From positions 1,184,001-1,248,000 of the forward strand of contig CAWCYD010000003.1 in NCBI GenBank assembly GCA_963799775.1: a stretch of 64,000 nt of DNA. The letters are read 5' to 3'. The notes under the pieces were generated by a model. The model saw nothing but the letters and a program-made list of their open reading frames with translations. It searched no databases and had not been told where the DNA came from. Source of the DNA: an uncultured archaeon. Lineage in GTDB: Archaea; Thermoproteota; Nitrososphaeria; Nitrososphaerales; Gagatemarchaeaceae. A program made the translations under genes and the position numbers. The stretch's first letter is position 1. Each line of letters opens with the position of its first letter. Shown here piece by piece: positions 20,945-55,798 of the stretch.

Positions 20945-20960
20945 TGGCGGACCGGTCAGG
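20945..20960 (-). repeat. Degenerate tRNA-Arg 3'-end (att-like) copy, distal island boundary
   Basis: TGGCGGACCGGTCAGG, 13/16 to TGGCGGGCCCGGCAGG. Confidence 0.5.
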
Positions 20961-21045
20961 GCAGGCCCTGCAAAAAAAAAGCTGACCGAAACGCAAGGAA
21001 CAAGCCCGTGAAACATAATTAAGCTCTGAAGGCGGATAGAGTTCC

Positions 21046-21465
21046 ATGAAGCCTGCACAGAAGGGCACGGGGTTCACGGACGAGGAAAAAGCCGCGATGA
21101 GGGAGCGCGCCAAGGAGATGAGAGCGGACGAGAAGGACGGGGAAAGTGCCGTGCTCGCGAAGATAGCCGGGATGAAGGAGCCCGACCGCACAATGGCCAA
21201 GCGGCTCCATGCCATCATCAAAGCCAGCGCGCCAGACCTCTCGCCGAGACTGTGGTACGGGATGCCAGCGTATGCCAAGGACGACAAGGTCGTCTGCCAC
21301 TTGCAAGATGCGAAGAAGTTCAAGACGAGGTACTCGACGTTAGGATTCAGCGACAAGGCGAACCTCGACGAGGGCTCGATGTGGCCGGTCGCCTACGCGC
21401 TGAAGGCGTTGACCGCTGCCGAAGAGGCAAAGATTGCCTCGCTCGTGAAGAAAGCGGTGAGTTGA
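21046..21465 (+). CDS. DUF1801 (YdhG-like) protein
   Basis: [47 protein letters not shown]. Confidence 0.85.
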
Positions 21466-21517
21466 GGACCGAGCTCGCTTCTAGGGCCTGCCTTAAGCAG
21501 TCCAATTCTTGATTGAT

Positions 21518-21533
21518 TGGCGGGCGCGGCTGG
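21518..21533 (-). repeat. att-like tRNA-Arg 3'-end copy
   Basis: TGGCGGGCGCGGCTGG (14/16) followed by ATTCG. Confidence 0.7.
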
Positions 21534-21607
21534 ATTCGGAGCCCTCGTTGTGTCAAAGGATCGCCAGAAAGGCGGCATAACGATGAGAACACTAGCACAA
21601 ATAGGGC

Positions 21608-21886
21608 TTGACACGTTTATCAGCCGGCGCAAGTGTCCGCTCTCCAGAGGAAATGAGAAAGTTGCCGAGAGCCCAGCATGATGACGGGATCGATGGCTTG
21701 ATGAAGAAGGCGATAAAGGCGCGTACTCCGAAGGGGGCGATTGCGACGATTGACGAGCTTGGGAAATACGGCCAGGACGCGGTATACGCATTAGAAGAGA
21801 TTGTTGATGAAACCGTATTCGACGAGGTGCGCGCCCATGGATTGCAGGTCATAAGAGACATCAAGAGTGAGGACACTCAGTTCTGA
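21608..21886 (+). CDS. Small HEAT-like helical protein (start may be 21652)
   Basis: AIATIDELGKYGQDAVYALEEI...VRAHGLQVI. Confidence 0.55.
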   Translation: MTRLSAGASVRSPEEMRKLPRAQHDDGIDGLMKKAIKARTPKGAIATIDELGKYGQDAVYALEEIVDETVFDEVRAHGLQVIRDIKSEDTQF

Positions 21887-21929
21887 GTTCTCGTTTCAGA
21901 GTTCAAGCCTGTTTGTGGCGAAGTACTTG

Positions 21930-21956
21930 CGGCACGCCCGGCAGGACTTGAACCCG
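21930..21956 (-). repeat. att-like tRNA-Arg 3'-end copy including T-arm
   Basis: CGGCACGCCCGGCAGGACTTGAACCCG; last 21 nt match the tRNA at 20/21. Confidence 0.85.
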
Positions 21957-22024
21957 AACATGCTCTCGAAAAAGGATTGCAAGGGCCGGTTGGGTGCGAG
22001 AGCACTTGGGATGCCACAAGCAAG

Positions 22025-22047
22025 TTACAATCCGGCACAAAAAATAC
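22025..22047 (+). promoter_or_regulatory. 23-bp phased operator-like motif
   Basis: TTACAATCCGGCACAAAAAATAC, then 6 nt, then CTTAAG upstream of ORF 22091. Confidence 0.55.
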
Positions 22048-22090
22048 CTCTACCTTAAGCGCGCCCGCGCAGTGAATTCATCGATAGATC

Positions 22091-22516
22091 ATGATGACCG
22101 CTAACAGCACGACAACGATACCTAAGGACGCAGCAGCATGGCTCAACCTGAGCTTCCAAGGGAAGAACAAGGACCTTGACGCGCTCTCTCAGCAGATAGA
22201 GCAGCAGCTCAAGGCTGATGGATACAAGACCCAGTCGATGAAGGCCCCGATCGGGAACATCGTCCAGGCCCAAAAGGCTGGAGTCCTCCGCGGAATCGTC
22301 GACGCGAACAGGGCGTTCTCGATACTCATCTCCGGACAGCCCAACGACTTCTCAGTCCACATCGGCATCGGGAAGTGGCTTCAGAACGCCGCCGTAGCAA
22401 TCGGTGAGTCGCTGATCTTCTCGCCGCTCGTCTTCCTCGTCGATGGTGGGGAGGTCCTCTGGACGACCCACGTCGAGAGCGGGATCGCGAAGCAGATAAC
22501 CCAAATCGTCGGCTGA
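22091..22516 (+). CDS. Hypothetical protein
   Basis: 141 aa ATG ORF with TATA-like box upstream. Confidence 0.7.
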   Translation: MMTANSTTTIPKDAAAWLNLSFQGKNKDLDALSQQIEQQLKADGYKTQSMKAPIGNIVQAQKAGVLRGIVDANRAFSILISGQPNDFSVHIGIGKWLQNAAVAIGESLIFSPLVFLVDGGEVLWTTHVESGIAKQITQIVG

Positions 22517-22610
22517 TCACTCAGACCAACGAGCCAGACTGGAGACCCGCGCCATGAAGAGCCCAACGCTCGTTCAAGAAACTCGAGCAAACGTCGATGC
22601 CGGGATGAAG

Positions 22611-23592
22611 ATGAGGGCGATCACTCGCACAAGGTACGGGTCTCCAGACGTTCTTCGGTTGGAGGATGTAGCCAAACCTACTCCCAATGACAACGAAGTC
22701 CTGGTGAAGATCAGTGCGGCATCCGTGAATGCGGGCGACTGGCATATCCTGAGAGGCAAGCCGTTCTTGATACGCCTGATGGGCTTTGGTCTGCTGAAAC
22801 CAAAGGGCAAGATCATAGGTGCAGACATCGCGGGGAGGGTCGAAGCTGTTGGCAAGAACGTGAAGCAGCTTCATCAAGGTGAAGAGGTTTTCGGAGACTT
22901 GGCCAAGTGTGGTCTCGGTGCTTTTGCCGAATATGCGTGCGTCCCCGAGAGTGCGCTAGCGTTAAAACCGGGCAACATTTCGTTCGAGGAAGCAGCGGCC
23001 GTACCCAGAGTAGGAGTCGTCGCTTTGCAGGCACTTCGCGACCATGGGCACATTCGGGCGGGGCAGAAGGTCTTGGTCAATGGTGCGTCTGGCGGTGTGG
23101 GCACTTTTGCGGTGCAGATCGCCAAATCGTTCGGAGCGGAAGTGACCGGCGTGTGTAGCACGAGGAATCTAGACAAAGTGCGGTCGCTCGGCGCTGACCA
23201 TGTCATCGATTACACCAAAGAGGATTTCACCAAGGACGGGCAGCAATACGACCTGATCCTTGCGGCCAACGGATATCATCCCATCTCAGATTACAAGCGC
23301 TCCCTAAAGCCCAACGGAACATACGTCATGAGTGGAGGTTCCAACGCCCAGCTCTTCCAATCTATGCTCCTATGGACCTCTGAACTCGATGACCGGGAAC
23401 AAAAAGATGGGCAGCATGATGCACAAGCCAAACCAAGGGGATTTGGACGTCATGAGAGATCTCATCGAAGCCGGCAAAGTCATACCTGTGATCGATAGAC
23501 GCTTCCCGTTGAGCGAGACTGCGGAGGCTATCCGATATCTTGAGCAAGGACACGCTCAAGGCAAAGTCGTCATCAGTATTTCCCCTGCGTAA
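22611..23592 (+). CDS. NAD(P)-dependent MDR alcohol dehydrogenase / quinone reductase 1 (frameshift near 23375)
   Basis: YGSPDVL, GADIAG, NGASGGVG, GADHVIDY, GKVVI. Confidence 0.88.
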
Positions 23593-23637
23593 CAAAGGGC
23601 AGTATCCGACCAAGACCCAATTGGAGCTTCCTTAGAT

Positions 23638-24661
23638 ATGAGCGGTCAGTCCCTCTCTCTAAAGACCGCTGAGAGAATGATAGCAATCGTCTGCACAAAG
23701 TACGGACCTCCGGAAGTCCTTCAGCTCAGAGAGGTGGGGAGGCCGACTCCCAAGGACAATGAGGTGCGGGTAAGAGTCCATGCGACGACTGTGACGATGG
23801 GAGATTGCGAGATTCGAAGGTTCAAGATGCCCGCATGGCTATGGTTGCTTGCGCGAATAGGATTTGGTTTCAGGGGCCCGAGAAAGAGAATACTGGGGCA
23901 AGAGCTTGCCGGGGAAGTTGAATCTGTCGGCAGAGACGTGAGCCAATTCAAGAAAGGCGACCAAGTCTTCGCCCTCACCGGTCTCCACTTGGGCGCGTAT
24001 GCCGAGTATGACTGCCTGCCTGCGAGAGGGCTGATCGCAACAAAGCCGGCCAACATGAGCTTCGAGGAAGCCGCCGCAATCCCCCTAGGCGGGCTTCATG
24101 CGCTACATTTTCTTCGAGAAGCGAAGATTCAGAGAGGCCAGAAGGTCTTGATCGTTGGTGCGGGAGGAAGCATAGGCACCGTTGCAGTGCAGCTAGCCAA
24201 GTCGTTCGGAGCGGAGGTGACAGGTGTAGACAGCACGAGCAAACTGGACATGTTGCGCTCCGTTGGTGCTGACAAGGTCATCGACTACACAAAAGACGAC
24301 TTTGCCAAGAGCGGTGAGAGCTATGATGTCATCTTTGACGTGGTGGGCAAGACATCGTTCTCGGTTTGCATGAGTGTCCCTCAAGGAAAACGGGTTCTAT
24401 CTGATGGGCAACCCAGGGCTGTCGCAGCTTTTCGGAAAGCTGAGGCGTTCGGGCAGCAAGAAAGCGATCGGCGGGATGGCGTCGTACAAGACCGAGGATT
24501 TGGTCATGCTCAGACAGCTCATAGAGTCAGGGAAGATAAGATCGGTCATAGACAGGCAGTATCCACTGGAGCGCATAGCCGAAGCTCACAGATATGTTGA
24601 CACAGGGCAGAAGGCAGGGAACGTGGTCATAACCGTGGGCCCAGACAGCCTGCACGGCTAG
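23638..24661 (+). CDS. NAD(P)-dependent MDR oxidoreductase 2 (frameshift near 24378)
   Basis: [33 protein letters not shown]. Confidence 0.88.
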
Positions 24662-24684
24662 CACTTTCTGAGGGTGCGGGCACC

Positions 24685-25653
24685 ATGAAAGCGATTGTGT
24701 ACACAAGATATGGGCCTCCGGAAGTTCTTCAAATCAAGGAGGTAGCGCAACCAGCCCCCAAGGACGACGAGGTTCTGGTCAAGGTTCACGCGGTCTCGTT
24801 GAACAGATCTGACTGGGAGAGACTGAGAGGCACGCCGTTGTTCGTCCGTTTCGGAGGGCTTCTACGACCTCGGCACCATATACTCGGGTCGGACATAGCC
24901 GGGCGAGTCGAGGCGGTTGGCAGAAAGGTCACGCGATTTCAGCCAGGCGACGAGGTCTTCGGAGACCTGATGGGGCCCGCGGGCGGGTTTGCCGAACATG
25001 TCTGCGTCCTTGAAAAGGCCTTGGCTTTGAAACCAGTCGGTCTGACGTTCGAGGCGGCGGCCACTATCCCGCAGGCTGGGGTAATCGCCTTTCAGGGGAT
25101 TCGCGACAAAGGACGGGTCAAACAGGGGCAAAAGGTTTTGATCAATGGCGCGGGCGGCTGCACCGGCACGTTCGCAGTGCAGCTCGCAAAATCATACGGA
25201 GCTGAGGTGACAGGAGTGGATAACAGGGGCAAGCTCGATTTCATGCGCTCGCTTGGGGCGGACCATGTCATCGACTACAACCGGGAAGACTTCGCCAAGA
25301 ACGGGCAGCAGTATGATCTCATACTGGATGTCGTCGCGAATCGGTCTGTCTTCGCCTACAAGAATGCGCTGAGGCCTAACGGGCTCTATCTTGCTGTCGG
25401 AGGTTCTCTATCGGCGCTCTTCCAGATCTTGTTCTTGGGAACATGGATTGGGGGGACGACGGGAAGAAAGATGCGCATCTTGGCCGTTCGACCAAGGCTG
25501 GAGGACATGCTCGCTATGGCGGAACTCTGTGAAACAGGCAAGATAGTCCCTGTCATCGACCGACGACTTGCGCTAGGTGAAGTTCCCGAAGGGCTACGGT
25601 ATCTGGGAGAAGGACGCGCCAAAGGAAAAGTCGTGATAGTCTTGGGTGCGTGA
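24685..25653 (+). CDS. NAD(P)-dependent MDR oxidoreductase 3
   Basis: YGPPEVL, GSDIAG, NGAGGCTG, GADHVIDY, GKVVI. Confidence 0.9.
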   Translation: MKAIVYTRYGPPEVLQIKEVAQPAPKDDEVLVKVHAVSLNRSDWERLRGTPLFVRFGGLLRPRHHILGSDIAGRVEAVGRKVTRFQPGDEVFGDLMGPAGGFAEHVCVLEKALALKPVGLTFEAAATIPQAGVIAFQGIRDKGRVKQGQKVLINGAGGCTGTFAVQLAKSYGAEVTGVDNRGKLDFMRSLGADHVIDYNREDFAKNGQQYDLILDVVANRSVFAYKNALRPNGLYLAVGGSLSALFQILFLGTWIGGTTGRKMRILAVRPRLEDMLAMAELCETGKIVPVIDRRLALGEVPEGLRYLGEGRAKGKVVIVLGA

Positions 25654-25687
25654 CGGGCCGCTTGACCCTCGATTCGGCACACCGGGC

Positions 25688-25720
25688 GTATTCTTTGTTA
25701 CAATTCGTAATTTTTCGTAA
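25688..25720 (-). promoter_or_regulatory. Phased operator array upstream of RHH regulator 1
   Basis: Reverse complement TTACGAATTGTAACAAAGAATAC plus an extra TTAC 10 bp away. Confidence 0.55.
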
Positions 25721-25817
25721 CCAGACCCAAAACGGGTACTTATCGCAACATGAGCATCAGTAATAGACAGTAGCGTCATGCTTAAGAAATTGCAGGCCCG
25801 ACCAACGTTGGGTTCAT

Positions 25818-26336
25818 ACGAAGCCGAAGACATCGACTGCCTCGTTCAGAGTGGATGAGCTGGCTCTAGACGCACTCCATAACGATGCGAAGAAGCAAAA
25901 TGTGAGCGTCAATACCTTGCTGAACCAGCTCCTACTTGGGTACGCGAGCTACGACCAGCCGATGAAGAGGTTCCAGATGATAAAACTACCCGCCGCGACC
26001 TTCAGATATGTCTTGCAGGCGGCCACCAACGAAAAGATAGCCGAAGCCGGTAGGCTGGCTGGGGACGACGTTCCCAAGACGTACATCCTCGCAAAGTGGG
26101 GTGTACTTACTCCTGAGAACTGTCTCGATTATCTGAGGGCCATGTCCAAGCACGCCAAACTCTTCGACTACAGTGAAGTCGTTCACGACGGAATGCTTAG
26201 CGTCACCTTGTCGCATGGCTTTGGGGCGAAAGGAAGCCTGTTCCTGCAGAACTACGTGACGGAGGTATTCGCACGGTCTGGCAAAGTGCCGAGGTTCTCC
26301 GCAGACGAGAATGCCGTCGTGTTCGAACTCTCCTGA
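25818..26336 (+). CDS. Ribbon-helix-helix transcription regulator 1 with C-terminal ligand-like domain
   Basis: KPKTSTASFRVDE...AKKQNVSVNTLLNQLL; paralog of 31065-31583; homologous start codon is ACG at 25818. Confidence 0.75.
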   Translation, partial: TKPKTSTASFRVDELALDALHNDAKKQNVSVNTLLNQLLLGYASYDQPMKRFQMIKLPAATFRYVLQAATNEKIAEAGRLAGDDVPKTYILAKWGVLTPENCLDYLRAMSKHAKLFDYSEVVHDGMLSVTLSHGFGAKGSLFLQNYVTEVFARSGKVPRFSADENAVVFELS

Positions 26337-26377
26337 CAGAGCATGAATTAGGCCGCGTCTCGCTCCTTCGCGTTCTC

Positions 26378-26400
26378 TGACAAATAGTTACGAAAAATAC
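26378..26400 (+). promoter_or_regulatory. 23-bp phased operator-like motif
   Basis: TGACAAATAGTTACGAAAAATAC upstream of HMA-like gene. Confidence 0.55.
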
Positions 26401-26443
26401 CATCACCCCATTAGCCTCGAGACCTGCCATTCACCGGACTACG

Positions 26444-26650
26444 ATGCGATCAAAGAGCGGGGATGCAATGGTGATCTTCAGGGTCGACAGAATGAGCAGC
26501 CGAGGACGAGCCAAGAACCTCGGGCTGGAGCTCGGCAAGCTTGATGGAGTCCGCGCAATTGAGTTCAACTACATCTTGGATACAGTGTCGATCAAATACG
26601 ACGGCAAGAAGCGGACTCTAGGTTTCATAAGAAACACGCTAGTCAAGTGA
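26444..26650 (+). CDS. HMA-fold-like small protein lacking CxxC
   Basis: LGKLDGVRAIEFNYILDTVSIKYD; paralog of 31702-31917. Confidence 0.7.
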   Translation: MRSKSGDAMVIFRVDRMSSRGRAKNLGLELGKLDGVRAIEFNYILDTVSIKYDGKKRTLGFIRNTLVK

Positions 26651-26822
26651 GCACCGAGTTGCGGCAGCGTTCCGTTGCCGCAAACCGGTCTCCTGCACGT
26701 CCTAAGTGCTCATTATCCGTTTTCCTGCTCGACGCTTCTTTACGGGGACCTTTCCCGCCAGGCGCCTTGGCGGCGCGCGCCTTTGCCGCTGTCATCCTGC
26801 CGCCTCTGCTCTTCTTTGCCAT
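26643..26822 (-). CDS. Small basic hypothetical protein
   Basis: MAKKSRGGRMTAAKARAAK; degenerate homolog near 41960-42090. Confidence 0.4.
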   Translation of the reverse strand: MAKKSRGGRMTAAKARAAKAPGGKGPRKEASSRKTDNEHLGRAGDRFAATERCRNSVLT

Positions 26823-26859
26823 TTTTGAGTTCACCCCCACTACTGTGTGCTTTTGGCCT

Positions 26860-27030
26860 CTAGAGTACTATTCCAAAGACGAGTGCTAGGACGAAGAGAA
26901 CGAGAAACAGGACAATCAATATCTTGGCGATGTCCATCGACAAACCTGCTACTCCCTTTGCGCCGAGCAAATAGGCGACGAGAGCTATGACCAGGAATAA
27001 GACGGCGAGTCCGAGTAACGATGTTGCCAG
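26860..27030 (-). CDS. DUF1328 (UPF0391/YtjA-like) small membrane protein; missing from ORF track
   Basis: Manual translation LATSLLGLAVLFLVIALVAYLLGAKGVAGLSMDIAKILIVLFLVLFVLALVFGIVL*; probable CTG start. Confidence 0.85.
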   Translation of the reverse strand: MATSLLGLAVLFLVIALVAYLLGAKGVAGLSMDIAKILIVLFLVLFVLALVFGIVL

Positions 27031-27080
27031 TCCTCATCGTCCCCTATCCAGCATCTCTGAATAGCGCCCTTTTGCACTAC

Positions 27081-27374
27081 TCAGGTGTGCTTATCGGTCT
27101 GCGTCTCGAGAAGAGCGCTCCGTCCGAGCAGCTTCTTGTCTAGGATGAAGATTATTACTTGGTCGCCCACGTCCACACCGACGTTTCCGCCGATGGGCTG
27201 GACCACGAACTTTCCGCCTCCGGTGAGCCTCGCCACCGTCGCTTCGACGACCGCGACGCCTGTCTTGGATTTGAAGACCGTCGCTCTCTCCCTGCCGCCT
27301 CCGGCCCTCGAGACGTTTCTGCCGGTGTCAGATTTTCGCTCTCTCTCAACCTCTTTGTCTGCGTCTGATGGCAT
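27081..27374 (-). CDS. Small beta-barrel-like hypothetical protein, copy 1
   Basis: Near-identical paralog at 42136-42429. Confidence 0.75.
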   Translation of the reverse strand: MPSDADKEVERERKSDTGRNVSRAGGGRERATVFKSKTGVAVVEATVARLTGGGKFVVQPIGGNVGVDVGDQVIIFILDKKLLGRSALLETQTDKHT

Positions 27375-27421
27375 GTCTAATTCGTGGCCCATATTCCTCA
27401 CGCGCGATATATGAATACCGT

Positions 27422-27444
27422 GTATTTTCTGCAATGGATTGTAA
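27422..27444 (-). promoter_or_regulatory. 23-bp phased operator-like motif
   Basis: Reverse complement TTACAATCCATTGCAGAAAATAC, 6 nt, TTCATATA, upstream of ATG 27374. Confidence 0.7.
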
Positions 27445-27525
27445 GATGAGAGAAGGGGTGAGCCTCGGTTGATACCTACGCTGGCAACACTCTAATAGAG
27501 AAGGGGGCCGGAAAAAAGAGTCGGC

Positions 27526-27762
27526 ATGAAAGAAGACAAGCGCGCCGAGTGGCTTGGCGCAGTTCTCTCGCTCCTCTATGAGTTCAACTGGCCAATGGGC
27601 GAGACGGAGATACTGCAGCGCTCGATGGAATCCTCGAACGTCGAGGACCTGCGTTCGCTGCTAGCTGATCTCAAGAAGGCAGAGCTGATTTCGGACGCTG
27701 TTCCCGGGAACTGGAAATTGACGAAGAAGGGGAAAGAACTCGTTAGAAAGTCGCTCGGGTAG
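27526..27762 (+). CDS. Small winged-helix protein
   Basis: LADLKKAELI...WKLTKKGKE wing motif. Confidence 0.65.
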   Translation: MKEDKRAEWLGAVLSLLYEFNWPMGETEILQRSMESSNVEDLRSLLADLKKAELISDAVPGNWKLTKKGKELVRKSLG

Positions 27763-28771
27763 GAAGAGCAGAGCGAAGAACTCGACGTAGTCCACTTCCG
27801 GTTTCCTCCCCATGAACCGCCAAAGCCACGCAGAAGGACGGCCGGCCAGCTCGCCTATCCGCGCCGGTTTTTGGGATAGTGGTCCTGGGCCGACCAATCC
27901 TGACGTAGGCAAAAGCGGCCGCACCGTAGAAACCAACGAAGAGGACGTACCCTATAACCTCGTGGAGACTCGTCAGCAATTGTAGCCCGCCGATGACGCC
28001 GGCCCACACGATTGCCGCTATCCGCAGAGCGTTAAGGACCACCAAGGCGACGGTGCCCAAGACGGCTATCATTGTCGTTGACGACCAGTCCTTCCCCAGG
28101 TCGATGTGCATAAGGGCGACGACGAGGAGGAAGATGCTAATCGAGGAGATGCTGCTGCAATATGGTGTTATGTCGATGCTCAGGCCCGTCCCCAGTCGAG
28201 AGGAGAACTGGATTTGGGGCCCTGGGAGCGCAGAGTAGGAGTAATGAACGCCGGAAGCGCTCAATATGGCCCTGCTGAAGAGCGAGGCCATGCCGACCAG
28301 CGGCCCACCTACGAGAGCGGTGAACGGGTCCACCAGGAGCGTCGCCGCCAGAAGCACCCCCGCGTATGGTAGAGTCATCTTCAGCGTTGACGGGTTGAGC
28401 ACGAGCGATACACCCCAGAAGACCAGGAACACCGGCAAGACGGCGACCGAAATGGAGTTCTCGTAACTCTTCAGCAGGGGGAGAAATATCAACGGCGAGA
28501 GCGTGAGCAAAAGCCCCGCCAGCCTAACCAGGGGCCTGGTCCGGAGGCCGCCCTCCTCCATGAGCAAGCCGCGAAAGTCCCGCCACCTGAGCAGAAGGAA
28601 GATTCCTACGAAGAGGACCGCCGCTATCGGGTAGTTGATGCCGAGATTCGACGGCGATATTCCGTCAAGCGACGAGATGAGAGTGGACACTTGTTGCGGA
28701 TAGAGCACCTGGCACAGGATCGCGGCCATGCCCAGCCATAGTGCCAGCCGATAGCGAACGTCTAGAGTCAA
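27743..28771 (-). CDS. Archaeosortase/exosortase family protein
   Basis: Multi-TM; ITPYCSS (Cys), LNALRI (Arg), LHEVIGY (His) catalytic triad. Confidence 0.85.
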   Translation of the reverse strand: MTLDVRYRLALWLGMAAILCQVLYPQQVSTLISSLDGISPSNLGINYPIAAVLFVGIFLLLRWRDFRGLLMEEGGLRTRPLVRLAGLLLTLSPLIFLPLLKSYENSISVAVLPVFLVFWGVSLVLNPSTLKMTLPYAGVLLAATLLVDPFTALVGGPLVGMASLFSRAILSASGVHYSYSALPGPQIQFSSRLGTGLSIDITPYCSSISSISIFLLVVALMHIDLGKDWSSTTMIAVLGTVALVVLNALRIAAIVWAGVIGGLQLLTSLHEVIGYVLFVGFYGAAAFAYVRIGRPRTTIPKTGADRRAGRPSFCVALAVHGEETGSGLRRVLRSALPTRATF

Positions 28772-28887
28772 GCCAGCCCTCCAATCTCTTGCCTTCTTCC
28801 TTCCTCATGAAAGGTTCTTGCCAGATGCCCCCACTTGGGAAGTACTTACCGTGAGGACGTTGTTAAATGAGTCGCTTGCGAGTTGGT

Positions 28888-46065: not shown

Positions 46066-46097
46066 ATGCTTTCGCTCGAATCGATGTCAGGAAGCTC

Positions 46098-47094: not shown

Positions 47095-47125
47095 GTGTTG
47101 GCTAGTGAATCCCTGAGCAGAGATG

Positions 47126-47872: not shown

Positions 47873-47894
47873 TAGCGGGCCCGGCACGGCCCGC
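47873..47894 (-). repeat. att-like copy
   Basis: TAGCGGGCCCGGCA followed by CGGCCCGC (hairpin). Confidence 0.85.
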
Positions 47895-47923
47895 CACGCA
47901 TGGGTAGCAAATCCGGCTCGCAT

Positions 47924-48631: not shown

Positions 48632-48724
48632 CTCTCAAACGTCCGATAGGGCATGAATATGAACCATGTTCAATTTCCTATCCCATGCCCAAGAGGTTCG
48701 AATCCATTTCTGGGGAAGTTTTGG

Positions 48725-48762
48725 TGGCGGGCCCGGCAGGATTTGCTTAACTAATTAAGCGA
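48725..48762 (-). repeat. att-like copy plus arm C
   Basis: TGGCGGGCCCGGCAGGATTTG, with TAATTAAGCGA 27 nt from core start. Confidence 0.94.
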
Positions 48763-48796
48763 CACCTTGATCTCGGTGTTTCGATTCCCCGAGAAA

Positions 48797-48970
48797 TCAA
48801 TCATTGGAGCGAACAGAATGTTGGCCCAACCTTACCAGAATCAAGAGGCAAGAAATGAAGCCGCATCCTAGTATCACGACGACCGATTCAGACGCGGTCC
48901 CGTTGAGCTCTATCGACGTTGCGACCATCGTGAAAGCCCAAACCAACGAAATGGCAACGTTTGCGGTCAT
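48797..48970 (-). CDS. 57-aa two-TM membrane protein; missing from ORF track
   Basis: Manual translation MTANVAISLVWAFTMVATSIELNGTASESVVVILGCGFISCLLILVRLGQHSVRSND*. Confidence 0.45.
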   Translation of the reverse strand: MTANVAISLVWAFTMVATSIELNGTASESVVVILGCGFISCLLILVRLGQHSVRSND

Positions 48971-49201
48971 GAACCTAGTGGGGATGCCGCTGTTCTTCGA
49001 CCCGGTCTCTGAGCGACTCGCGGGGTTCTTGGGCCGACGAGCCTTAGGCTAAAAGTTAGCGTCAATCGCGGCAACGCTCGAACAAAGTCAGACCGACCAA
49101 AACAGGTCGTTCAAATCTCTGCGACCGCACACCAATCACATCAGACGGCCGGAATCCTCGAAATCCTCTTTGGGAACCGATTCTCCGAGGGCGGACCGCG
49201 G

Positions 49202-50374
49202 ATGAAGCGAAAAGGAGTCTGCTACGATGTAGGGCGGGTCATGCTTGGGGCCGATTGGCGACCTAAATTCGACCCTCGAGCCGTCCACCGGGAACTCGAA
49301 ATCATCAAGACCGACATGCACTGCAATGCCGTTAGAATATGCGGCCTCGACATCGATAGGCTCATGACCGCGAGTGAGGACGCCCTGTCACAAGGGCTGG
49401 AGGTCTGGCTATCTCCCGAGATGTGGGACAAAAGCCAGGATGAGACCTGCGAATACATCGCGAGGGCGGCGGAGCGGGCGGAGGGGCTCCGTCAACGGTG
49501 GCCCGGAAAGCTGGTCTTCAGTGTGGGCTCCGAGCTGAGCCTCTTCTCTCAGGGGATGATCGAGGGCAAAAACGTCTTTGACCGGATATCCCGTTCCTCG
49601 TTCTTTAGCGATATATCGGCCGGGACGTACAACGGCCCGCTCAATCTGTACCTGTCGAATCTGAGCGAGGCCGCGAAGAAGTCGTTCCGTGGGCCGCTCA
49701 CCTACTTCTCCTTGCCGTTCGAAGCTGTCGACTGGAAACCGTTCGATTTCGTCGGGGTAGACCATTACAGGGACGCGCAGAACAAAGTCGCCTATGGTCG
49801 GATGATAAGCAAGTACAACGCATTCGGCAAGCCTGTGATTGTAGGGGAGTTCGGGTGCTGCACTTTCCGGGGCGCGGAGCTGCTCGGAGGAAACGGCTTC
49901 ATGATAACCTTCGGGATGATTGAAGGCCTCCTCGGGCCAAACCAGAAGCTTCCCAAGATGTTCTTGGACATGGCGCATGTCCCGCCCCGAGCCGACGGGC
50001 ACTACATCCGTGACGAGGAGCTCCAGGCACGCGAGCTGGTCGATCAGCTGGGGGTGCTCGACGCAGCGGGGGTTGAGGGCGCGTTCGTGCAAACCTTCGT
50101 GGTTCCTAACTCCCCGTACCGCTCGGACCCCAGGTACGACACCGACATGGCGAACTTTAGCCTGGTGAAGAGCTTCCAGGAGGCAGAAACGGCGGAAGAG
50201 TTCAGGAGACAGACCATCCGTGGGGCCAGGGAAGTGATTGGGGTGGACCTCGACCCCCGCGTTCTGGATGGTTTTTCAGGTCGAATGGGCGAGCATGGAG
50301 TGACATATCCGGATCTGCCGTGGGAGCCGAAGGAGTCTTTCAGGGCGGTAGCGGAGTATTATGCGAAACATTAG
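49202..50374 (+). CDS. Glycoside-hydrolase-like TIM-barrel protein (actinobacterial-type family)
   Basis: KGVCYDVG, HCNAVRI, GLEVWLSP, VGSEL, GKPVIVGEFGC, WEPKESF. Confidence 0.75.
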   Translation: MKRKGVCYDVGRVMLGADWRPKFDPRAVHRELEIIKTDMHCNAVRICGLDIDRLMTASEDALSQGLEVWLSPEMWDKSQDETCEYIARAAERAEGLRQRWPGKLVFSVGSELSLFSQGMIEGKNVFDRISRSSFFSDISAGTYNGPLNLYLSNLSEAAKKSFRGPLTYFSLPFEAVDWKPFDFVGVDHYRDAQNKVAYGRMISKYNAFGKPVIVGEFGCCTFRGAELLGGNGFMITFGMIEGLLGPNQKLPKMFLDMAHVPPRADGHYIRDEELQARELVDQLGVLDAAGVEGAFVQTFVVPNSPYRSDPRYDTDMANFSLVKSFQEAETAEEFRRQTIRGAREVIGVDLDPRVLDGFSGRMGEHGVTYPDLPWEPKESFRAVAEYYAKH

Positions 50375-50496
50375 GAAAAAATAACTTCGTGTTGAATCCT
50401 GTTGGAACCCGACGCAATCTGAACTTAAAGTTCAAGTTGCTGCCACCGCACAGTTCGAATTCAACAGACCGCGTTTCGGAGGATTCGCTTAGTGAT

Positions 50497-52792
50497 TTAA
50501 GCGGGCCCAGGCAAGAATTCGGCTCGTCGCAATCTAGGTGAGCGTGAAAGGTTGGCAGGCCCCGATGGTCTAGCGCCGAATGTCATGTTCTTTCGTGTGA
50601 GGAAGGAAATGATGAGAAGGGAGGCGAGAAGCAGAGGAACGAGCATTACTGTCGGGAACTCCGGAACGGTTGACGATGTCGTAGTCTGGGGATCGCCGAT
50701 GACCAAAGGCGAACCCGTTAGACTGGCGACCGGGATATCTCCGCAGACCATGCCAAGGGAGCTGTTCGTGCTGGCTGAATCCGATATTGCCGCAGCAGCG
50801 CTCCAAGCACCGGCCGAGTAATATTCGATCAAGGTTTTCGAACCTACATACGCGCTCGACACGCATGTGTGCGCCGTCCCCCCTGTAATCCCGGAGATGC
50901 TGAGGTCGTAGAACTTCAAGGCCGCACCGCTTGCGGGGCCCAGAGAAACTGTGCCCGTGTTAGAAGGTTGAGCAGCCAGCTGCTGTGTGTTTATGGTTGC
51001 TGTGGCGCCGCTCGTTCCGGAGACCCCGACGCTGATTCCCGTGGTCGGGAATGACTGGGTCGGGACCGAACCTGAGGAAACGGCCGCGGAACCTGCTTGG
51101 GTCGACTGGCATGTGTCGACGACCGGGTTGGGCGACACCGGAGTCGTTGAATCGTTTCTGAAAGTCCCGTTACAGGCGTTGTTTATGGTGCCGGAGTTCG
51201 AGATTGTCGCTAGGTCGAAGTTGGTGAAGGAACCGGAGTTGGCCACAGTACCCCCCATCATGTTGGTTAGAGTGGCACCGACGAGCGCGCCACTGGCGAG
51301 CGCGCCGTTTATGAAGGTGGCACCGTAAACGTTCGTGATCACTCCGGAGGCGTTGTTGTTCAGAGTGCTCCAGACTCGGACGAAGCCGCCCGCGTTGTTC
51401 GTTATGGTCCCGCTGTTGGATGTATGATATGCAAATGTCACACTGCCCAGGTTGGATATAGTCCCAAAGTTGGCAACGACAGAGTCGAAAGATATTGTTC
51501 CTGTGTTGGAGATCATGCCCTTGTTGACGATGTTGCCGCCCGCATCATTGGTATCGTAGGTGAAGGTGCCGGAATTGGCGATTGTGCCCGTGTTGGTGTT
51601 GGTGAAGCTCTGCTCGTTCGTCATCGTGGCGCCCTGGTTGTTGTTGATCGTGCCCGAGTTGGTCGCGATGCCTGTCCCCGGTGATCCGTAGAAGCCAAGG
51701 CTGCCTCCCTTGTTGTTGGTGATGGTTCCCGCATTGTTGAAATTGTAGAAGCTGTTGAAAGTGCCGCTGTTGGTGATTGTTCCCCCTGCGTTGTTGGTGA
51801 CTGTGGACGGCCCAAAAGCGGTAATGATGCTGCCGGAGTTTGTTATCTGCCCTCCTGGGTCGCCCGTGCTGTCTGGACCAGCCTGCGTCGTAATGAAACC
51901 GTCGCACTCGATATTGGCGCCGGCGTCCACGTCGACCTTCCCGCTGTCGCTGACGTACAAGGTGACGCCGGTCGGGAGGTACAGCTCAGCGCTCGGCGAT
52001 ATCTCGAGCACGGTTGCGATTCCGGCGTAGCCTACCGTGAGAGTGCTCCCTGACATCATGTTAAAGGTCCCCAGTGCTGGTAAAGGTGCCAGAAAAGTAG
52101 GGCGTGCCCAATGGCGCGGTCGAGCCCGTCACCTTTACCGTCTGGCCTGAGTACAGCTCCATCCAGCCGCCGTTGTTGATCGTGCCGGGGTTGAGGAGAA
52201 CCCCCGTTCCGAGTCCGTAGTTATCGTCCTGCAGGGCACCGCCCAGGAGGTTGTCAATCGTCCCCTGGTTGGAGAAGGTTCCCCCGCCCGCGTAGATCAG
52301 ACCGCCGGCGCTGTTCGTGAGCGTCCCCGTGTTCGTGAACGTGCAGTCGCTCGATATCGTCCCTGCGTTCGTTATGGTGCCTGAGCTTGTTACCGTGCCA
52401 CAGACGGTGCTGGCGATAGCGCTCTGGATCTGCCCCGTGGAAGTGATCTTCATGACTCCGGAGTTGGTAATCGTGCCCGCGGAGTCCGACATGATGGCAG
52501 ATATCGTGAATGTCGCACCTGGGCCCACGGTAAGAGTCGCCCCGGGGAATATCGACAAGGAGGTTCCCGCCGGGAGCTGCCCGCTCGCTGCAACATAGCA
52601 GTCGACTGTAGCGTTGGACCACGATCCTCCCAGGCTCGCGCAATCGGCGGTGCTTTGGTGCAGGGAGCCAGGATTGTTGCCGTTGAGATTGTATGAGACT
52701 TGGGCACCCGCGTCAGGAGGCAGAAACGCAAGGATTGACACAAACGCCAGAATCACTGCAAGAACCAGTGGGGCTTTGTGAGAAACCCTCAA
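50497..52792 (-). CDS. Secreted beta-helix-repeat adhesin-like protein with PEF-CTERM (frameshift near 52060)
   Basis: Signal peptide; many GTITNSG/NxGxI repeats; VPEFPTVMLVPLLLASLLIISFLTRK. Confidence 0.8.
50499..50513 (-). repeat. att-like copy (CCCAGGCA variant)
   Basis: AAGCGGGCCCAGGCA; same 1-nt insertion as 52834. Confidence 0.65.
50515..50568 (-). repeat. Degenerate att-like copy with left arm shared with the 45277 site
   Basis: TGAGCGTGAAAGGTTGGCAGGCCC vs TGAGCGTGAAAAGTTGGCGGGCCC (45263). Confidence 0.65.
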
Positions 52793-52833
52793 CCGCTCGT
52801 AATTTCAAGATTCAGTCTATTAACCATGATGTC

Positions 52834-52880
52834 TGGCGGGCCCAGGCAGAGCCCACCCCTGAACAGGTTCTCAAAGCGAA
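52834..52880 (-). repeat. att-like copy plus arm A
   Basis: TGGCGGGCCCAGGCAGA + GCCCACCCCTGAACAGGTTCTCAAAGCGAA. Confidence 0.88.
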
Positions 52881-52904
52881 TTCCTAAGGATTGCAAGGAC
52901 TGGT

Positions 52905-53409
52905 TTAGTAGAACCCGGAGGCGACCATGAAGACCGATGTGACGATGAGAAGGAGTACCGTCAGGGTGGCCAGGTCAGAGGCTCGTTTTGAGCGTCTTTG
53001 GAAAGTCCGGAGGTGGCTGATGTTGACCGGCGGCCTGCATTTCCTTTATCATTTTTATGGCTCTCAGTTGGATTGGGACGGCAACGAATTCCGATATCAA
53101 GAAAGCAATGAAACCGATGGCGAGCCCGATTGTGAGATACATGCCGAAAGAGGTCGAGAAGGAGAGAACCTTGAAGTCCCCCCCGGAGTAGTTATAGAGG
53201 AAAAGCACTCCGAACAGTATGGTTGTGCCTGCCGTGATTTGGAAGAACCGGACTACTCTGGGGACGACCTTCACGAGGAACTCTCCCGAGCTTGCGGGTG
53301 AAAGCTTCGCGAGAGCCGGTCCTACCACAAAGGCGAACATGATCCCGCCCCCCAGCCATCCAATTGCTGAAATGACGTGGAGCCAGGCGAGAATCGCGGT
53401 GAGAAGCAA
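52905..53409 (-). CDS. Four-TM CopD/DUF2269-like membrane protein (frameshift near 52988)
   Basis: WLHVISAIGWLGG; shifted tail RASDLATLTVLLLIVTSVFMVASGFY*. Confidence 0.75.
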
Positions 53410-53495
53410 GTGGGAACAAAATCTTGTCCGACTATATGAATATGATTTCTTGGGCTTCTTCGCCGCGTTCTGAAAATTACCGCTGAGGAGAAATT

Positions 53496-53606
53496 TGGGG
53501 GCCCGGCAGTTTCCGCACCAAAAATGGTGCTAGATTTGGTTCCGTTTCGCGGGTTCATGTCTCGATGGATTCGAACTTCCGAGGAGTCGGTTCGGCTCAC
53601 TCATTC
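53496..53606 (-). repeat. att-like copy plus 97-bp arm B
   Basis: TGGGGGCCCGGCAG (1-nt deletion) plus arm 88/97 identical to 45969-46065. Confidence 0.92.
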
Positions 53607-54323
53607 TCCCTTTCCAGCCAGCATTCCCTTTACTGTCTTCAAATGTTCAAGGGTCAGCTTGATTTGCGAAATTATGTCGATTCGCAGGCGGAATTCTGCC
53701 TTAAGCGAGGATGGGAACTCCTTGCTTCCAAGCCTGTTGATGCCGGAATCCAGTTGCTTTGCCAGCTTGGCCCTAGTCCCAGTGTTAGTAAAATCAGCCA
53801 CCGCATTCCAGTCTGCCTGTTCTCCCAGCATTACGATGTCTCTCATGTCCGTATTTCTTGCCGGGTGCAACTTCATCGCAATTAGCAATTCCTTCTTCGG
53901 AACCATGGCCATAGTAGAATCGGTTACCCCGACGACATTGGCCTCAGTGGAACTCCGCATCAGGAGTTCGTAACTCCATTCCCCTCCAGTATCCCTGCAC
54001 ACAACACTATTGATTGACAGATCGACGGAAACCCTTCGTCCTCCGATCAGTTTTACGTACTTGACAGTTTTCGCACCGTAGGTTCCCTTGCCCACGTTCG
54101 ACGCTCTTGCCTTCCTGTATCCTTCACCAGTCAATACTTTTCCAAATGATTCGAGATTCTTTTCAGAAATGACAATATCGCAGTCGACCGACAACCGATG
54201 AGACGCCAGAGCGCTGACCGCATAACCGCCAATCACCACGAACTTGCCCGAATGCGAATGGAGAACCCTAACTATTCGAATAACTTCAGTTTCCCTCGCA
54301 GTCAGATCGGCGGCTTGCGACAT
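53601..54323 (-). CDS. Nucleotidyltransferase, AbiEii/type IV toxin-like
   Basis: VVIGGYAV, RLSVDCDIV, LIAMKL, RNTDMRDI. Confidence 0.75.
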   Translation of the reverse strand: MSQAADLTARETEVIRIVRVLHSHSGKFVVIGGYAVSALASHRLSVDCDIVISEKNLESFGKVLTGEGYRKARASNVGKGTYGAKTVKYVKLIGGRRVSVDLSINSVVCRDTGGEWSYELLMRSSTEANVVGVTDSTMAMVPKKELLIAMKLHPARNTDMRDIVMLGEQADWNAVADFTNTGTRAKLAKQLDSGINRLGSKEFPSSLKAEFRLRIDIISQIKLTLEHLKTVKGMLAGKGE

Positions 54324-54327
54324 TCGA

Positions 54328-54939
54328 TCACTCGTCGTATTTTATTCCAAGACCGAGCTTGTATTCTTCGTCGAGCATCTCAAGAGCCGGCTCGTACGCG
54401 TAGATATTTTTCTTGGCGAATTCAATGGTCTCTTTGAGCGGCTCAACCCTCAACCCTTCGACCGTTTCTGATTCGATTCTCTTTGCTGGATGCATCAGAT
54501 AGAAGACCCCGAAGACAGTCTCTTTTGGAATCATATCGACAAGGAATGATTTCTTGCCATTGTTTCTGAAGAATCGTTTCCACTTTTCCACGTCTTTTTC
54601 GATGACCTTCAAATGGATTGGATAGAAACCGAAGAACCTATCCACATTATACCCTCCCCTAGTCCAAGCGAATACTGCATCCACGTCTGACAGTGCGTAT
54701 GGGTATTCTGCCTTCTTCAGAAGCTCGTATGCACCGCCTACGTCATTTCTCATCGTCACGTAATCATCTACCGACTTGACCCTGTACTTTCCGTATTCCA
54801 GATGCTCGAGCATCCCCTTCTTCGCCATGTCGTGCAATACCTTTCGGGGATTAGGGCTGGAGAACGTTGCGGCAAACTCTCCGCTGGTGAACTCCCTCCT
54901 CCACTTGCCGAGGATTGCCCAAAGTTCATAGTACGACAT
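54328..54939 (-). CDS. wHTH protein, AbiEi-like antitoxin candidate
   Basis: N-terminal wHTH (VLHDMAKKGMLEHLEYGKYRV); 4 bp upstream of the NTase gene. Confidence 0.65.
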   Translation of the reverse strand: MSYYELWAILGKWRREFTSGEFAATFSSPNPRKVLHDMAKKGMLEHLEYGKYRVKSVDDYVTMRNDVGGAYELLKKAEYPYALSDVDAVFAWTRGGYNVDRFFGFYPIHLKVIEKDVEKWKRFFRNNGKKSFLVDMIPKETVFGVFYLMHPAKRIESETVEGLRVEPLKETIEFAKKNIYAYEPALEMLDEEYKLGLGIKYDE

Positions 54940-55104
54940 AATGTTACTATGGTGGTTACATCTTATAAAGATGGTGTATCAGGCATATCAAGCGACTTAC
55001 TCTGTCGGCTTCGCTCATTCCCCCTTTCCCATATCTGATTCCAAAGCGAGATAGCCAGTGTCAAGCTCATATCCTTAGAGAAGTAACGACAAAGCAGGGA
55101 TCGA

Positions 55105-55578
55105 ATGGTAGGCAACGGAGGAAGTAGGCGAAGATTCCTAAAGTACGCGGCGGTATCAGCCATGGGACTTGCAGCGGTAGGTACCGGGCTTTACTACTCA
55201 GGCAGATTCTTGCCGCCACCGGCCGAAGCATCTTCAACTAGTGAACAGACTTCAAGTAACTCAACTTCAGCATCTTCCGCTACCAGCTTCGACCCGATTG
55301 AGTACATCCAAAATGACATTCTCGACAATCTTCCAGAATACAATTCTCTCCCATTAGCAAGCCAAGCCGCGGCAATACAAACAAACAATGTGGTAGTCAA
55401 CACTATGGGTAAGGGTGATTTGGGGGCTTACGATAGGAACAAGCAACGTGTCTATACGATTTTATCGAATCAATATGATTATTGGAAAGATGGGAAATCA
55501 CCAGAGGTACAATTCATCGATCTGCAAAGGCCAGACGGCACTTTCATAAACTTGTATGGAAATTCCCCAAAAGTTTGA
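55105..55578 (+). CDS. Twin-arginine (Tat) signal protein, AT-rich, possibly truncated
   Basis: SRRRFLK + hydrophobic helix, Ser/Thr linker. Confidence 0.6.
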   Translation: MVGNGGSRRRFLKYAAVSAMGLAAVGTGLYYSGRFLPPPAEASSTSEQTSSNSTSASSATSFDPIEYIQNDILDNLPEYNSLPLASQAAAIQTNNVVVNTMGKGDLGAYDRNKQRVYTILSNQYDYWKDGKSPEVQFIDLQRPDGTFINLYGNSPKV

Positions 55579-55723
55579 TTTTGCTATAAAGCTGACAATG
55601 GCGCAAAAATTCCGCCACCCACAGCAATATCAGAGATCCTCCAACTTCGGACTGAAGGAATCTTGAAATAGTTTAATTCGTCTTAATTCTGACTAAATAG
55701 GTGAATAACGGGGGTAGTTTTAG

Positions 55724-55798
55724 CGGGCCCGGCAGGATTTGAACCCGCGACACCGGGGTCCGAAGCCCCGTGCCCTATCCGTGCTAGACTACGGGCCC
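55724..55798 (-). tRNA. tRNA-Arg(TCG), intronless
   Basis: GGGCCCG acceptor stem, anticodon loop CT-TCG-GA (55761-55763), T-loop GTTCAAATC; followed by CTA rather than CCA. Confidence 0.96.

Follow-up and report, generated by a model that had tools for sequence, protein, structure and literature searches.

Small integrase-less gene cassettes bounded by tRNA-end repeats in a probably accreted island at a tRNA-Arg gene of a Nitrososphaerales archaeon

Some described systems of mobile DNA come close to the locus reported here. Streptococcal cis-mobilizable elements (CIMEs), related to ICEs (integrative and conjugative elements) and to IMEs (integrative and mobilizable elements), are units in which integration and transfer genes were lost or never present and attL and attR are kept. 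According to excerpts of the same account, they lie in tandem at a tRNA 3' end and are mobilised when an integrase-bearing neighbor integrates and the composite excises (PMC5704250). Prochlorococcus harbors tRNA-adjacent tycheposon islands, in which successive integrations push older elements inwards and partial tRNA copies lie scattered between the elements, most of the islands described in the excerpted text being devoid of an active element (bioRxiv 10.1101/2020.12.28.424599). In Thaumarchaeota, 57% of the integrated elements reside in tRNA genes, with a median att length of 17 bp; they use tyrosine integrases, tandem integration is mentioned, and the cryptic elements, the smallest of which has 2.6 kb, carry an integrase by definition (excerpts of Krupovic et al., 2019, PMC6563490). 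Here, we analyze a 64,000-nucleotide stretch of an archaeal genome, in the following termed the window, which contains a 35-kb island adjoining the gene for tRNA-Arg(TCG). In its right-hand part, degenerate to exact copies of the tRNA 3' end, termed cores, separate small gene cassettes none of which encodes an integrase. We propose, with a probability of roughly 60%, that these cassettes are miniature non-autonomous integrative elements that accreted at a tRNA hotspot and were moved in trans or by co-excision.

CIMEs share several traits with the archaeal locus, i.e. direct repeats of att that stem from the target's 3' end, units without integrase and transfer genes, and an autonomous integrase-bearing element at the same att, which is here found in two other species of the genus (G017 and G011, at least 12 kb). 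Compared with CIMEs, the units described here are much smaller (0.5-2.3 kb, one to three genes) and form much longer rows (11-14 units). Their conserved arms fall into few types, which are found again at different tRNA genes; individual units are common to more than one species, and conjugation genes are absent. Excision of the archaeal units is a conjecture from sequence. Tycheposons involve another recombinase family in another domain of life, and in the excerpted account partial tRNAs mark integrase-bearing elements or irregular remnants, whereas here they delimit regular, reused cassettes with conserved arms. What sets our locus apart from both systems is its archaeal host, the regularity and very small size of its units, and a small set of conserved arm types seen again at different tRNA genes. 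The thaumarchaeal elements come from the same phylum, but arrays of integrase-less units of at most 2.3 kb (some <1 kb) are not described in the excerpts of that survey (PMC6563490). A limited literature search yielded no account of arrays of integrase-less cassettes at tRNA genes of archaea. Integrase-less modules that often carry toxin-antitoxin genes, end in short sites and depend on a recombinase encoded elsewhere are known as Xer-dependent integrative mobile elements (IMEX) and as pdif modules of Acinetobacter plasmids. In those Xer/dif modules the shared site is dif, whereas the core shared by our units is the end of a tRNA.

The window corresponds to C3:1184001-1248000 of a genome of 2,470,806 bases in 3 contigs (G000) with 58.8% G+C. 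This value and the peat/soil habitat fit the non-ammonia-oxidising family Gagatemarchaeaceae, for which 54-62% G+C is given in the excerpted text of a genomic study that contains no mention of "integrase", "mobile genetic" or "genomic island" (PMC10640624). Labels G007, G008, G011, G013, G015-G018 and G022 denote genomes of the same genus (congeners). The tRNA gene at the island's right end was detected by ARAGORN and matches Rfam RF00005 with 55.8 bits. Its 3' end reads ...CCTGCCGGGCCCGCTA, and the last 16 nt, TGGCGGGCCCGGCAGG when read on the plus strand, span the 3' strand of the T-stem, the 3' strand of the acceptor stem, the discriminator base and CCA. At up to three mismatches, this 16-mer occurs 17 times in the window, compared with a mean of 1.30 and a maximum of 5 in 100 shuffles. 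Most of the copies claimed by the original prediction, an earlier reading of the bare sequence, were recovered within this threshold and all on the same strand (20945, 21518, 21930, 42607, 43113, 44519, 45277, 45954, 47011, 47873, 48725, 53495/6 and 55721). Those proposed at 50499, 50553 and 52834 fail the three-mismatch cutoff, but can be made out by eye as degenerate or indel-bearing cores, each with a recognisable flanking arm. An additional match at 47323 sits within an open reading frame (ORF) and is probably due to chance.

A scan of the whole genome places exact cores at this locus only (4/4), and the 16-mer is not scattered in the manner of a repetitive extragenic palindromic (REP) element. 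With relaxed stringency, 8 of 10 matches (≤1 mismatch) and 10 of 17 matches (≤2 mismatches) fall inside the locus, and those outside include other tRNA-Arg genes. Several genomes of the genus contain 6-13 core copies, and at most two per genome were found outside the genus in the 151 order-level genomes sampled, a tally that takes in the unpublished genome G132 with its one core match. Together, these data support a reading of the repeats as duplications of the tRNA 3' end of the att type, confined to the locus.

Some further observations concern the repeat and the tRNA genes as such. The presence of CCA in the repeats had suggested a retro-copied tRNA, an idea that was dropped given that many tRNA genes of this genome encode CCA and that the tRNA-Arg genes of congeners end in GCCA. 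A split or permuted tRNA was rejected as well, the repeat comprising no more than the 3' strands of T-stem and acceptor stem. The core holds the palindrome CGGGCCCG, which might permit inversions. ARAGORN reports 18 tRNAs for the whole genome without intron mode and 37 when introns are allowed, many of the predicted introns being long. Duplicates of 3' ends are also present near tRNAs for Lys, Gly, Leu, Gln, Ala and Val, and integration at tRNA ends is therefore pervasive in this genome.

The island is an insertion relative to the congeners. Genes 6030-20703 of the window are colinear with G016 and G018, and on the other side a core copy adjoins the IF-2B homologue in 12/12 congener loci fetched. 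The gap between the last syntenic gene on the left, encoding an oxidoreductase, and the tRNA is 35 kb wide in the present genome, as against 4.5 kb (G016), about 11 kb (G018) and about 26 kb (G013) in congeners. As the gap thus differs between genomes with syntenic flanks, the whole region from 20.9 to 55.7 kb constitutes a variable island. Its old edge is marked by three degenerate cores on the left, one of which (21930) reaches into the T-loop region. The right-hand 13 kb (42.6-55.7 kb) are made up of 11 core-to-core units of 0.5-2.3 kb each, here designated c1 to c11 (Table 1). The sizes put forward in the original prediction (506, 1406, 758, 677, 1057, 862, 852, 1774+54, 2281, 662 and 2225 bp) agree with the coordinates recovered. 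Gene calls and Pfam scans bear out the proposed content of one to three ORFs per unit as well as the common direction, about 13 of 17 ORFs residing on the strand of the tRNA.

Cassettes of this array are shared between species and loci as discrete modules with breakpoints at cores. Comparison of the tRNA-Arg locus across relatives, which the original prediction had called for, showed that its content varies and that shared cassettes have differing neighbors. Cassette c4, encoding a VapC/PIN protein and a putative antitoxin, is exactly 677 bp long in the window, in G017 and in G008; in the latter it is present from core to core with 85.5% identity, alone among unrelated neighbors. Cassette c3 has 757 bp in G017 (758 bp here), where c2, c3 and c4 are colinear and form a block that is 89.3% identical over 2786 nt. 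Cassette c2 is also found in G011 (90.9%) and G022 (91.5%). In G011 it is directly followed by c7 (89.5%), and in G018 c7 is located between other units. A further copy of c7 resides in the tRNA-Arg(CCT) island of the same genome (C3:46014-46980; 91.6% identity on the nucleotide and 89% on the amino acid level). The homology between the two copies stops inside the core after GGCGGGCCCGG, the part that is shared by both tRNA-Arg genes. The ORF for 390 amino acids in c8 has a 96.4% identical paralogue over 1150 nt at C2:211268-212417, again beside core-like sequence. Identities exceed those of the housekeeping flank on the same contigs: the flank is 78.2% identical in G017, compared with 86.2% for c2, 90.8% for c3 and 93.9% for c4, and 74.9% identical in G018, compared with 88.5% for c7.

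The FtsZ cassette c2 is common to four species of the genus with 86-91% nucleotide identity. Its product, a full-length FtsZ, matches Pfam Tubulin and FtsZ_C and scores 322 bits with TIGR00065 (cutoff 295). The lineage is thought to divide by means of the Cdv system, and a horizontally exchanged accessory FtsZ is unexpected in such an organism.

Metagenomes provide further copies of the VapBC cassette c4. A scan with the VapC protein returned 29 loci, the ten closest of which (≥59% amino acid identity) were inspected for cores. All seven contigs with at least 69% identity carry cores. In all seven, similarity to the window starts at query positions q375-424 and ends at q984-1068 (q984 being a contig end), the cores in the query being situated at q377 and q1054, and these contigs contain no match to c3 or c5. 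One contig has the cassette immediately adjoining the tRNA-Arg gene.

The units follow a common layout. On the plus strand, a P arm lies to the right of the core and a P' arm to the left of the next core, and each comes in a few recurring types. Type A (about 105 nt) occurs in three or four copies and is present only in this array and, weakly, in G013. The type-B arm has the sequence RCCCGCCCCTGAACRGGTTCTSAAAGTGGATTCC and, read by eye, forms an 8-6-8 inverted repeat with the core, GGCGGGCC-CGGCAG-GGCCCGCC, a layout that would correspond to the usual form of a tyrosine-recombinase core site. The type-C arm, GGATGCRATTA-N6-TAAGCGAATCC, is an imperfect palindrome of 28 bp; in c3 it reads GGATGCGATTAGATAATTAAGCGAATCC (44532-44559) and shares its opening GGA with the core, and a reversed type-C-like remnant is present in c8 near 50481-50515. 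By eye, this arm has the 11-6-11 layout of dif sites (PMC8371274), and it is carried by only some of the units. A type-D arm was estimated by eye to be about 60% like type B, and the P' arm of c4 has the sequence GTAAGACACTGTGTCTTAAG.

The arm types are not tied to one tRNA. In the present genome they also flank duplicates of the ends of tRNA-Ala, tRNA-Lys and tRNA-Arg(CCT). A motif scan of public genomes found the type-B box in 36 loci of other metagenome-assembled genomes (MAGs) of Nitrososphaerales/Thaumarchaeota from peat and acid soils. In other MAGs it stands beside an Arg(CCT)-type core, and its stem-forming bases covary with that core (CAGG..CCTG vs. TGGG..CCCA). The type-C arm flanks an integrase-bearing element at tRNA-Ala, and the arm beside the G017/G011 integrase resembles type B. 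Because their arms resemble those of integrase-bearing elements, the cassettes have the look of miniature forms derived from ordinary integrative elements, or of hitchhikers on them.

Which enzymes might act on them? Pfam scans of the ORFs between 20.9 and 55.8 kb revealed no integrase, transposase or replication protein, as had been claimed, and when the whole window was searched by tblastn with seven integrases, no E-value was better than 0.2. The proteins of c7 (235 aa) and c8 (390 aa), considered as hidden recombinases, showed neither similarity to integrases nor any family match. As the island does not encode a recombinase, any recombination of its cassettes must be catalysed in trans. 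The term integrase-less accordingly holds for this island and not for its surroundings, since integrases are present elsewhere in the genome and, in congeners, at the same core. The system is no orphan: a family of tyrosine integrases adjoins tRNA 3' ends in this genome and directly this core in congeners. In G017 and G011, tblastn identified a protein of 441-469 residues whose gene begins immediately at the core, on that side of the homologous cassettes which is proximal to the tRNA, and integrases lie beside this core or the tRNA in G007 and G015 as well. The element in G017 and G011 has at least 12 kb, and its sequences from the two species show 100% identity over 12,000 nt, pointing either at very recent transfer or at an assembly effect of a shared sample. 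Its cargo (DUF7002, PurA-like, IrrE-Macro and ThiF-like proteins) looks defence-like, and an IS110-type transposase is encoded where both contigs end.

In an alignment of the family (A1), the catalytic set R153, K191, R283, H310 and Y318 is invariant, in agreement with the tyrosine-recombinase pattern R..K..H/Y-x-x-R..H..Y. The family profile matches archaeal XerA structures (E = 1e-5), two members match the phrog_1 integrase (1.9e-11), and relatives from MAGs of Nitrososphaerales and Bathyarchaeia are named "site-specific integrase" at NCBI; the family is therefore not new. It is present in 21/23 genomes of the genus, and in 19/19 copies examined a tRNA 3' end or a fragment thereof is situated shortly upstream of the gene start. 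The Pfam model PF00589 detects five recombinases elsewhere in the genome and members in 18/23 genomes of the genus, finds none beside the arrays of five congeners and misses the core-adjacent family, three of four tested members remaining unmatched even at E = 1. Serine recombinases were not found in 5 genomes, an SSV-type integrase (PF16795) is absent from this genome and matched once in G017, far from the array, and a conserved host XerA was not detected, the best match to the NCBIfam XerA model reaching 74 bits (cutoff 220). Intact copies of the tRNA-end family are located in the present genome beside tRNA-Ala, beside tRNA-Met and inside the tRNA-Arg(CCT) island. The candidate integrases of this genome include genes at C3:47926-49188, C3:1347680-1348945 and C3:1415577-1416836, and the G017 candidate occupies C1:1153412-1154743. 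A fourth copy (C2:214880-216197) is 77% identical to the G017/G011 enzyme and frameshifted, and could be a pseudogene or an assembly error. This family is the likely agent acting on the cassettes, and the arms are its presumed binding sites.

Two other islands of this genome deserve mention in this context. The tRNA-Arg(CCT) island (C3:45001-52500) combines the c7 paralogue with an integrase sharing 89% identity with its counterpart at tRNA-Ala and preceded by a tRNA-Ala 3' fragment in the orientation opposite to that of the island's own tRNA. Because of this fragment and integrase inside it, the island is a mosaic of elements with different target tRNAs. What appears to be a second large island is located at tRNA-Lys(TTT) (C2:211001-238043). 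It holds the frameshifted integrase and the c8 paralogue, along with three type-B arms (C2:213384, 214106 and 235602) and one arm of type C (235269).

On this basis, the following course of events may be proposed. The 3' end of tRNA-Arg(TCG) would act as an integration hotspot at which a 35-kb island accreted in a soil/peat Nitrososphaerales archaeon. Each cassette would consist of a P arm, one to three cargo genes, a P' arm and the 15-16-nt core that separates it from the next one and is identical to the T-stem and acceptor 3' strand of the tRNA plus CCA. Site-specific recombination at the core would insert, excise and reshuffle cassettes, the candidate enzymes being tRNA-targeting tyrosine integrases encoded at other tRNA islands or on the congener element of at least 12 kb at the core. 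A single cassette may be moved in trans. Alternatively, it may be co-excised with a neighboring integrase-bearing element that uses a distal core, i.e. by accretion and cis-mobilisation, and once the autonomous element leaves or decays the cassettes would remain. Cassettes may move singly or in blocks. The original prediction had assumed that minimal cassettes were inserted one after another at the tRNA by a recombinase acting in trans. The att-type duplications of the tRNA end, the discrete modules and the lack of an island recombinase agree with cassette insertion, but strictly successive insertion at the tRNA is not shown, because core decay follows no gradient.

A number of observations weigh against our proposal. 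Within 42.6-55.7 kb, core decay does not increase with distance from the tRNA; on the contrary, the most degenerate cores of this array (50553, 52834 and 53495) are those closest to it. Of the 19 ends of shared cassettes that could be assessed, only 12 have a core within 15 nt, the c2/c7 junction in G011 is devoid of one, and c2 in G017 lacks the left core. In G013, c4 is 75.7% identical and shows no excess over the flanks (72.5-76.2%), and the VapBC genes of that genome are not bounded by a core on the right and have another arm type. The DUF1801-like gene at the left edge of our island is present in the islands of five congeners, where it points either towards or away from the tRNA, and lies near a core at 0/10 ends in the congeners. 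Among the 36 units of 11 arrays, 23 are singletons, so that mobility is documented for a minority of units only. Excised circles, empty sites or recombination products were not detected in the read data, the main part of which is one soil run that covers 18% of the sampled words with short contigs unable to reveal circles or empty sites; two further runs of the same study contain next to none of the sampled words. A joint linking 45324 to 47910 was considered as a trace of excision and rejected, since it represents the c7 of a relative preceded by a full type-B arm. With regard to the enzymes, two of the 23 genomes of the genus (completeness 90% and 59%) yielded no family member, the copy of this genome that comes closest to the integrase of Arg(TCG) type has a frameshift immediately behind the catalytic Tyr, and the complete identity of the G017 and G011 elements could in part be an assembly or binning effect of a shared sample.

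A farther-reaching version of our proposal would be a tRNA-anchored, integron-like system in which single-gene cassettes, each with core and conserved arms, are excised as circles and inserted in trans at any core or at other tRNA-Arg genes. We consider this version possible, but less likely than not.

Still less probable, and in our view rather unlikely, is a fossil array. The units would then be immobile remnants of larger integrase-bearing elements, left by deletion in situ, and the likeness between species would stem from homologous recombination of island segments after DNA uptake, with cores and arms as mere patches of homology. Integrase-bearing elements of congeners do share this core, cores were lost at some junctions (c2/c7 in G011) and arms truncated (c7 of the window), c2-c3-c4 was inherited as a block in G017, the majority of units are singletons and the left 20 kb of the island are devoid of internal cores. 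Against this stands c4, which retains the same two arms and the same length beside different neighbors in three genomes and recurs in seven metagenome contigs, once directly at the tRNA. Likewise, c7 is present at two tRNA genes of one genome with homology ending inside the core. Finally, the arm boxes are conserved across species and target tRNAs and covary with the core, which neutral decay gives no reason to expect.

Integrons and clusters of attC sites lacking integron-integrases (CALINs) invite comparison as well (Ghaly et al., archaeal integrons, excerpts). As in the present array, their cassettes are small, hold mostly single genes in one orientation and have diverse cargo including toxin-antitoxin genes, each ends in a recombination site, and cassettes are shuffled and shared between hosts. 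CALINs even resemble our locus in being arrays without an adjacent integrase. Integrons possess attC hairpins, IntI and an attI site with the cassette promoter Pc, whereas here copies of a tRNA 3' end with their arms, a tRNA as anchor and no IntI are found, and the candidate recombinases are carried on mobile elements. An integron trait that the locus does exhibit is the array of small, mostly same-strand cassettes shared in different contexts, so that it works like an integron in outline; nevertheless, it fails the membership tests that were run on an adjacent IntI and on attC sites.

We therefore regard it as quite improbable that the array is a true integron analogue, with a dedicated host recombinase that reads folded sites in the manner of IntI and attC and inserts promoterless cassettes at the tRNA as attI. 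Such a system would suit the mostly single-gene cassettes, their diverse and often unknown functions, the toxin-antitoxin pairs, the prevailing orientation of the ORFs and the several site types, all of which by eye have dyad symmetry beside the core. The analogy drawn in the original prediction, with the tRNA in the role of attI, does not extend to the defining features, as neither an adjacent IntI nor a folding attC is present. A recombinase is missing beside the array here and in five congeners (PF00589), none is conserved throughout the genus (PF00589 in 18/23, the tRNA-end family in 21/23 genomes), and the IntI profile TIGR02249 matches a single distant recombinase of the genome with 41.5 bits (cutoff 265). 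Type-B hairpins are visible in single-stranded DNA folds of the junctions, but the folds of ten junctions are no more stable than those of shuffled sequences (z from +0.48 to -2.51), with the exception of the only one for which at most two of 200 shuffles fold equally well. Rfam returned nothing except the tRNA, GTTRRRY/RYYYAAC boxes are absent by eye, and the integrases at this core ride on mobile elements.

Hardly credible, finally, is an RNA-level element, in which core and arm would be a tRNA-like 3' module (T arm, acceptor 3' strand, CCA) that was spread by gene duplication as a signal for processing, stability or termination: the module does lie downstream of most cassette genes on the sense strand, and pairing of the type-B arm with the core's T-stem portion covaries between Arg(TCG)- and Arg(CCT)-type sites, but the core always matches the tRNA at the end of the respective island (Arg-TCG here; Ala, Lys and Arg-CCT elsewhere), the content of congener islands varies exactly at these sites, and integrase genes start beside the same sequences.

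Some genes of the island merit a comment in their own right. The helix-turn-helix (HTH) protein of c5 shows weak similarity (E = 0.003-0.01) to the HTH domains found in transposases, resolvases and DNA invertases, and could be a regulator or a recombination directionality factor. An RHS...H motif in the c7 protein recalls histidine phosphatases when inspected by eye. In the core-free middle of the island, three paralogous Zn-dependent alcohol dehydrogenases are encoded in tandem (22554-25653) by repeat copies with 60-73% nucleotide identity. The same region contains genes for an archaeosortase-like protein, two LPG-synthase-TM membrane proteins and a GvpD/KaiC-like ATPase, as well as a frameshifted gene for a P-type ATPase. 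The P-type cation ATPase gene (39255-41808) consists of two overlapping ORFs with an apparent frameshift near 39.8 kb, and one may ask, in view also of the frameshift in the integrase gene at C2:215.85 kb, whether the assembly contains indel errors. Two copies of a segment of about 700 bp (26701-27434 and 41978-42431) lie 15 kb apart and have 78-84% identity. Each copy encodes an ORF of 97-117 amino acids without family match, and the second copy lies directly to the left of the core at 42607.

Table 1. Features of the tRNA-Arg(TCG) island, its flanks and the related integrase-bearing element. Positions refer to the window unless a genome and contig are given; strands of genes within cassettes are given in parentheses.
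Feature	Coordinates	Strand	Description
Left flank	19750..20703	-	Conserved pyridine-nucleotide-disulfide oxidoreductase; last gene syntenic with congeners
Left island edge	20945..21945	-	Three degenerate cores (20945, 21518, 21930), 2-3 mismatches each
DUF1801-like cassette gene	21046..21465	+	Left edge of island
Core-free middle of island	21946..42606	.	Absent at this position in congeners
c1	42607..43112	-	Core with 1 mismatch, then type-A-like arm; Rieske [2Fe-2S] ferredoxin 42701-43012(-)
c2	43113..44518	-	Core with 1 mismatch, then type-B arm 43129-43165; FtsZ 43311-44357(-)
c3	44519..45276	-	Exact core, type-C palindromic arm; ACT-domain-like 97-aa ORF 44896-45189(-)
c4 (677 bp)	45277..45953	-	Exact core, then type-B arm 45293-45327; VapC/PIN protein 45325-45702(-), putative antitoxin 45699-45917(-)
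c5	45954..47010	-	Core with 1 mismatch, then type-A arm ~45970-46075; 93-aa ORF 46098-46379(-), 114-aa HTH protein 46450-46794(+)
c6	47011..47872	-	Exact core, then type-A arm; DCC1-like thiol-disulfide oxidoreductase 47126-47719(-)
c7	47873..48724	-	Core with 2 mismatches, truncated P arm; 235-aa ORF 47924-48631(-) without family match
c8	48725..50552	-	Exact core 48725-48740, type-C palindromic arm; ORF 48804-49052(+), 390-aa ORF 49202-50374(+)
c9	50553..52833	-	Degenerate core 50553-50568; two repeat-rich surface-protein-like ORFs, 50497-52059(-) and 52061-52792(-), the second matching a haemagglutinin-repeat family
c10	52834..53494	-	Indel-bearing core 52834-52849, then type-B arm ~52850-52884; 144-aa membrane-protein-like ORF 52975-53409(-)
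c11	53495..55720	-	Degenerate core 53495-53510, type-A arm ~53511-53615; nucleotidyltransferase-like ORF 53601-54323(-), 203-aa ORF 54328-54939(-), weak ORF 55105-55578(+)
Core copy within tRNA itself	55721..55736	-	1 mismatch, CTA instead of CCA
tRNA-Arg(TCG), anchor (attB)	55723..55798	-	ARAGORN; Rfam RF00005
Right flank	55824..56864	-	Conserved IF-2B-family gene; orthologues in 38/41 relatives
Integrase-bearing element	G017 C1:1153337-1165901; G011 C5:1-12000		Integrase at tRNA-Arg core

Integrons solve the problem of how individual accessory genes can be stockpiled and exchanged at a single place in the chromosome. If single units do move, the locus would represent a second, independent solution to it, for which a tRNA gene and ordinary tRNA-targeting integrases suffice, in an archaeal soil lineage without a genetic system. 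These archaea would then gain a shared and shuffled pool of accessory genes, among them an FtsZ gene and genes for redox proteins and toxin-antitoxin pairs. Small integrase-less units are overlooked when archaeal mobile elements are surveyed by way of the integrase, the lower size reported for Thaumarchaeota being 2.6 kb. The 16-nt core, the few arm types and four candidate integrases provide defined substrates and enzymes for a first biochemistry of thaumarchaeal site-specific recombination. Even if the cassettes are accreted remnants, they offer an unusually clean record of how a tRNA island was assembled and of exchange between species.

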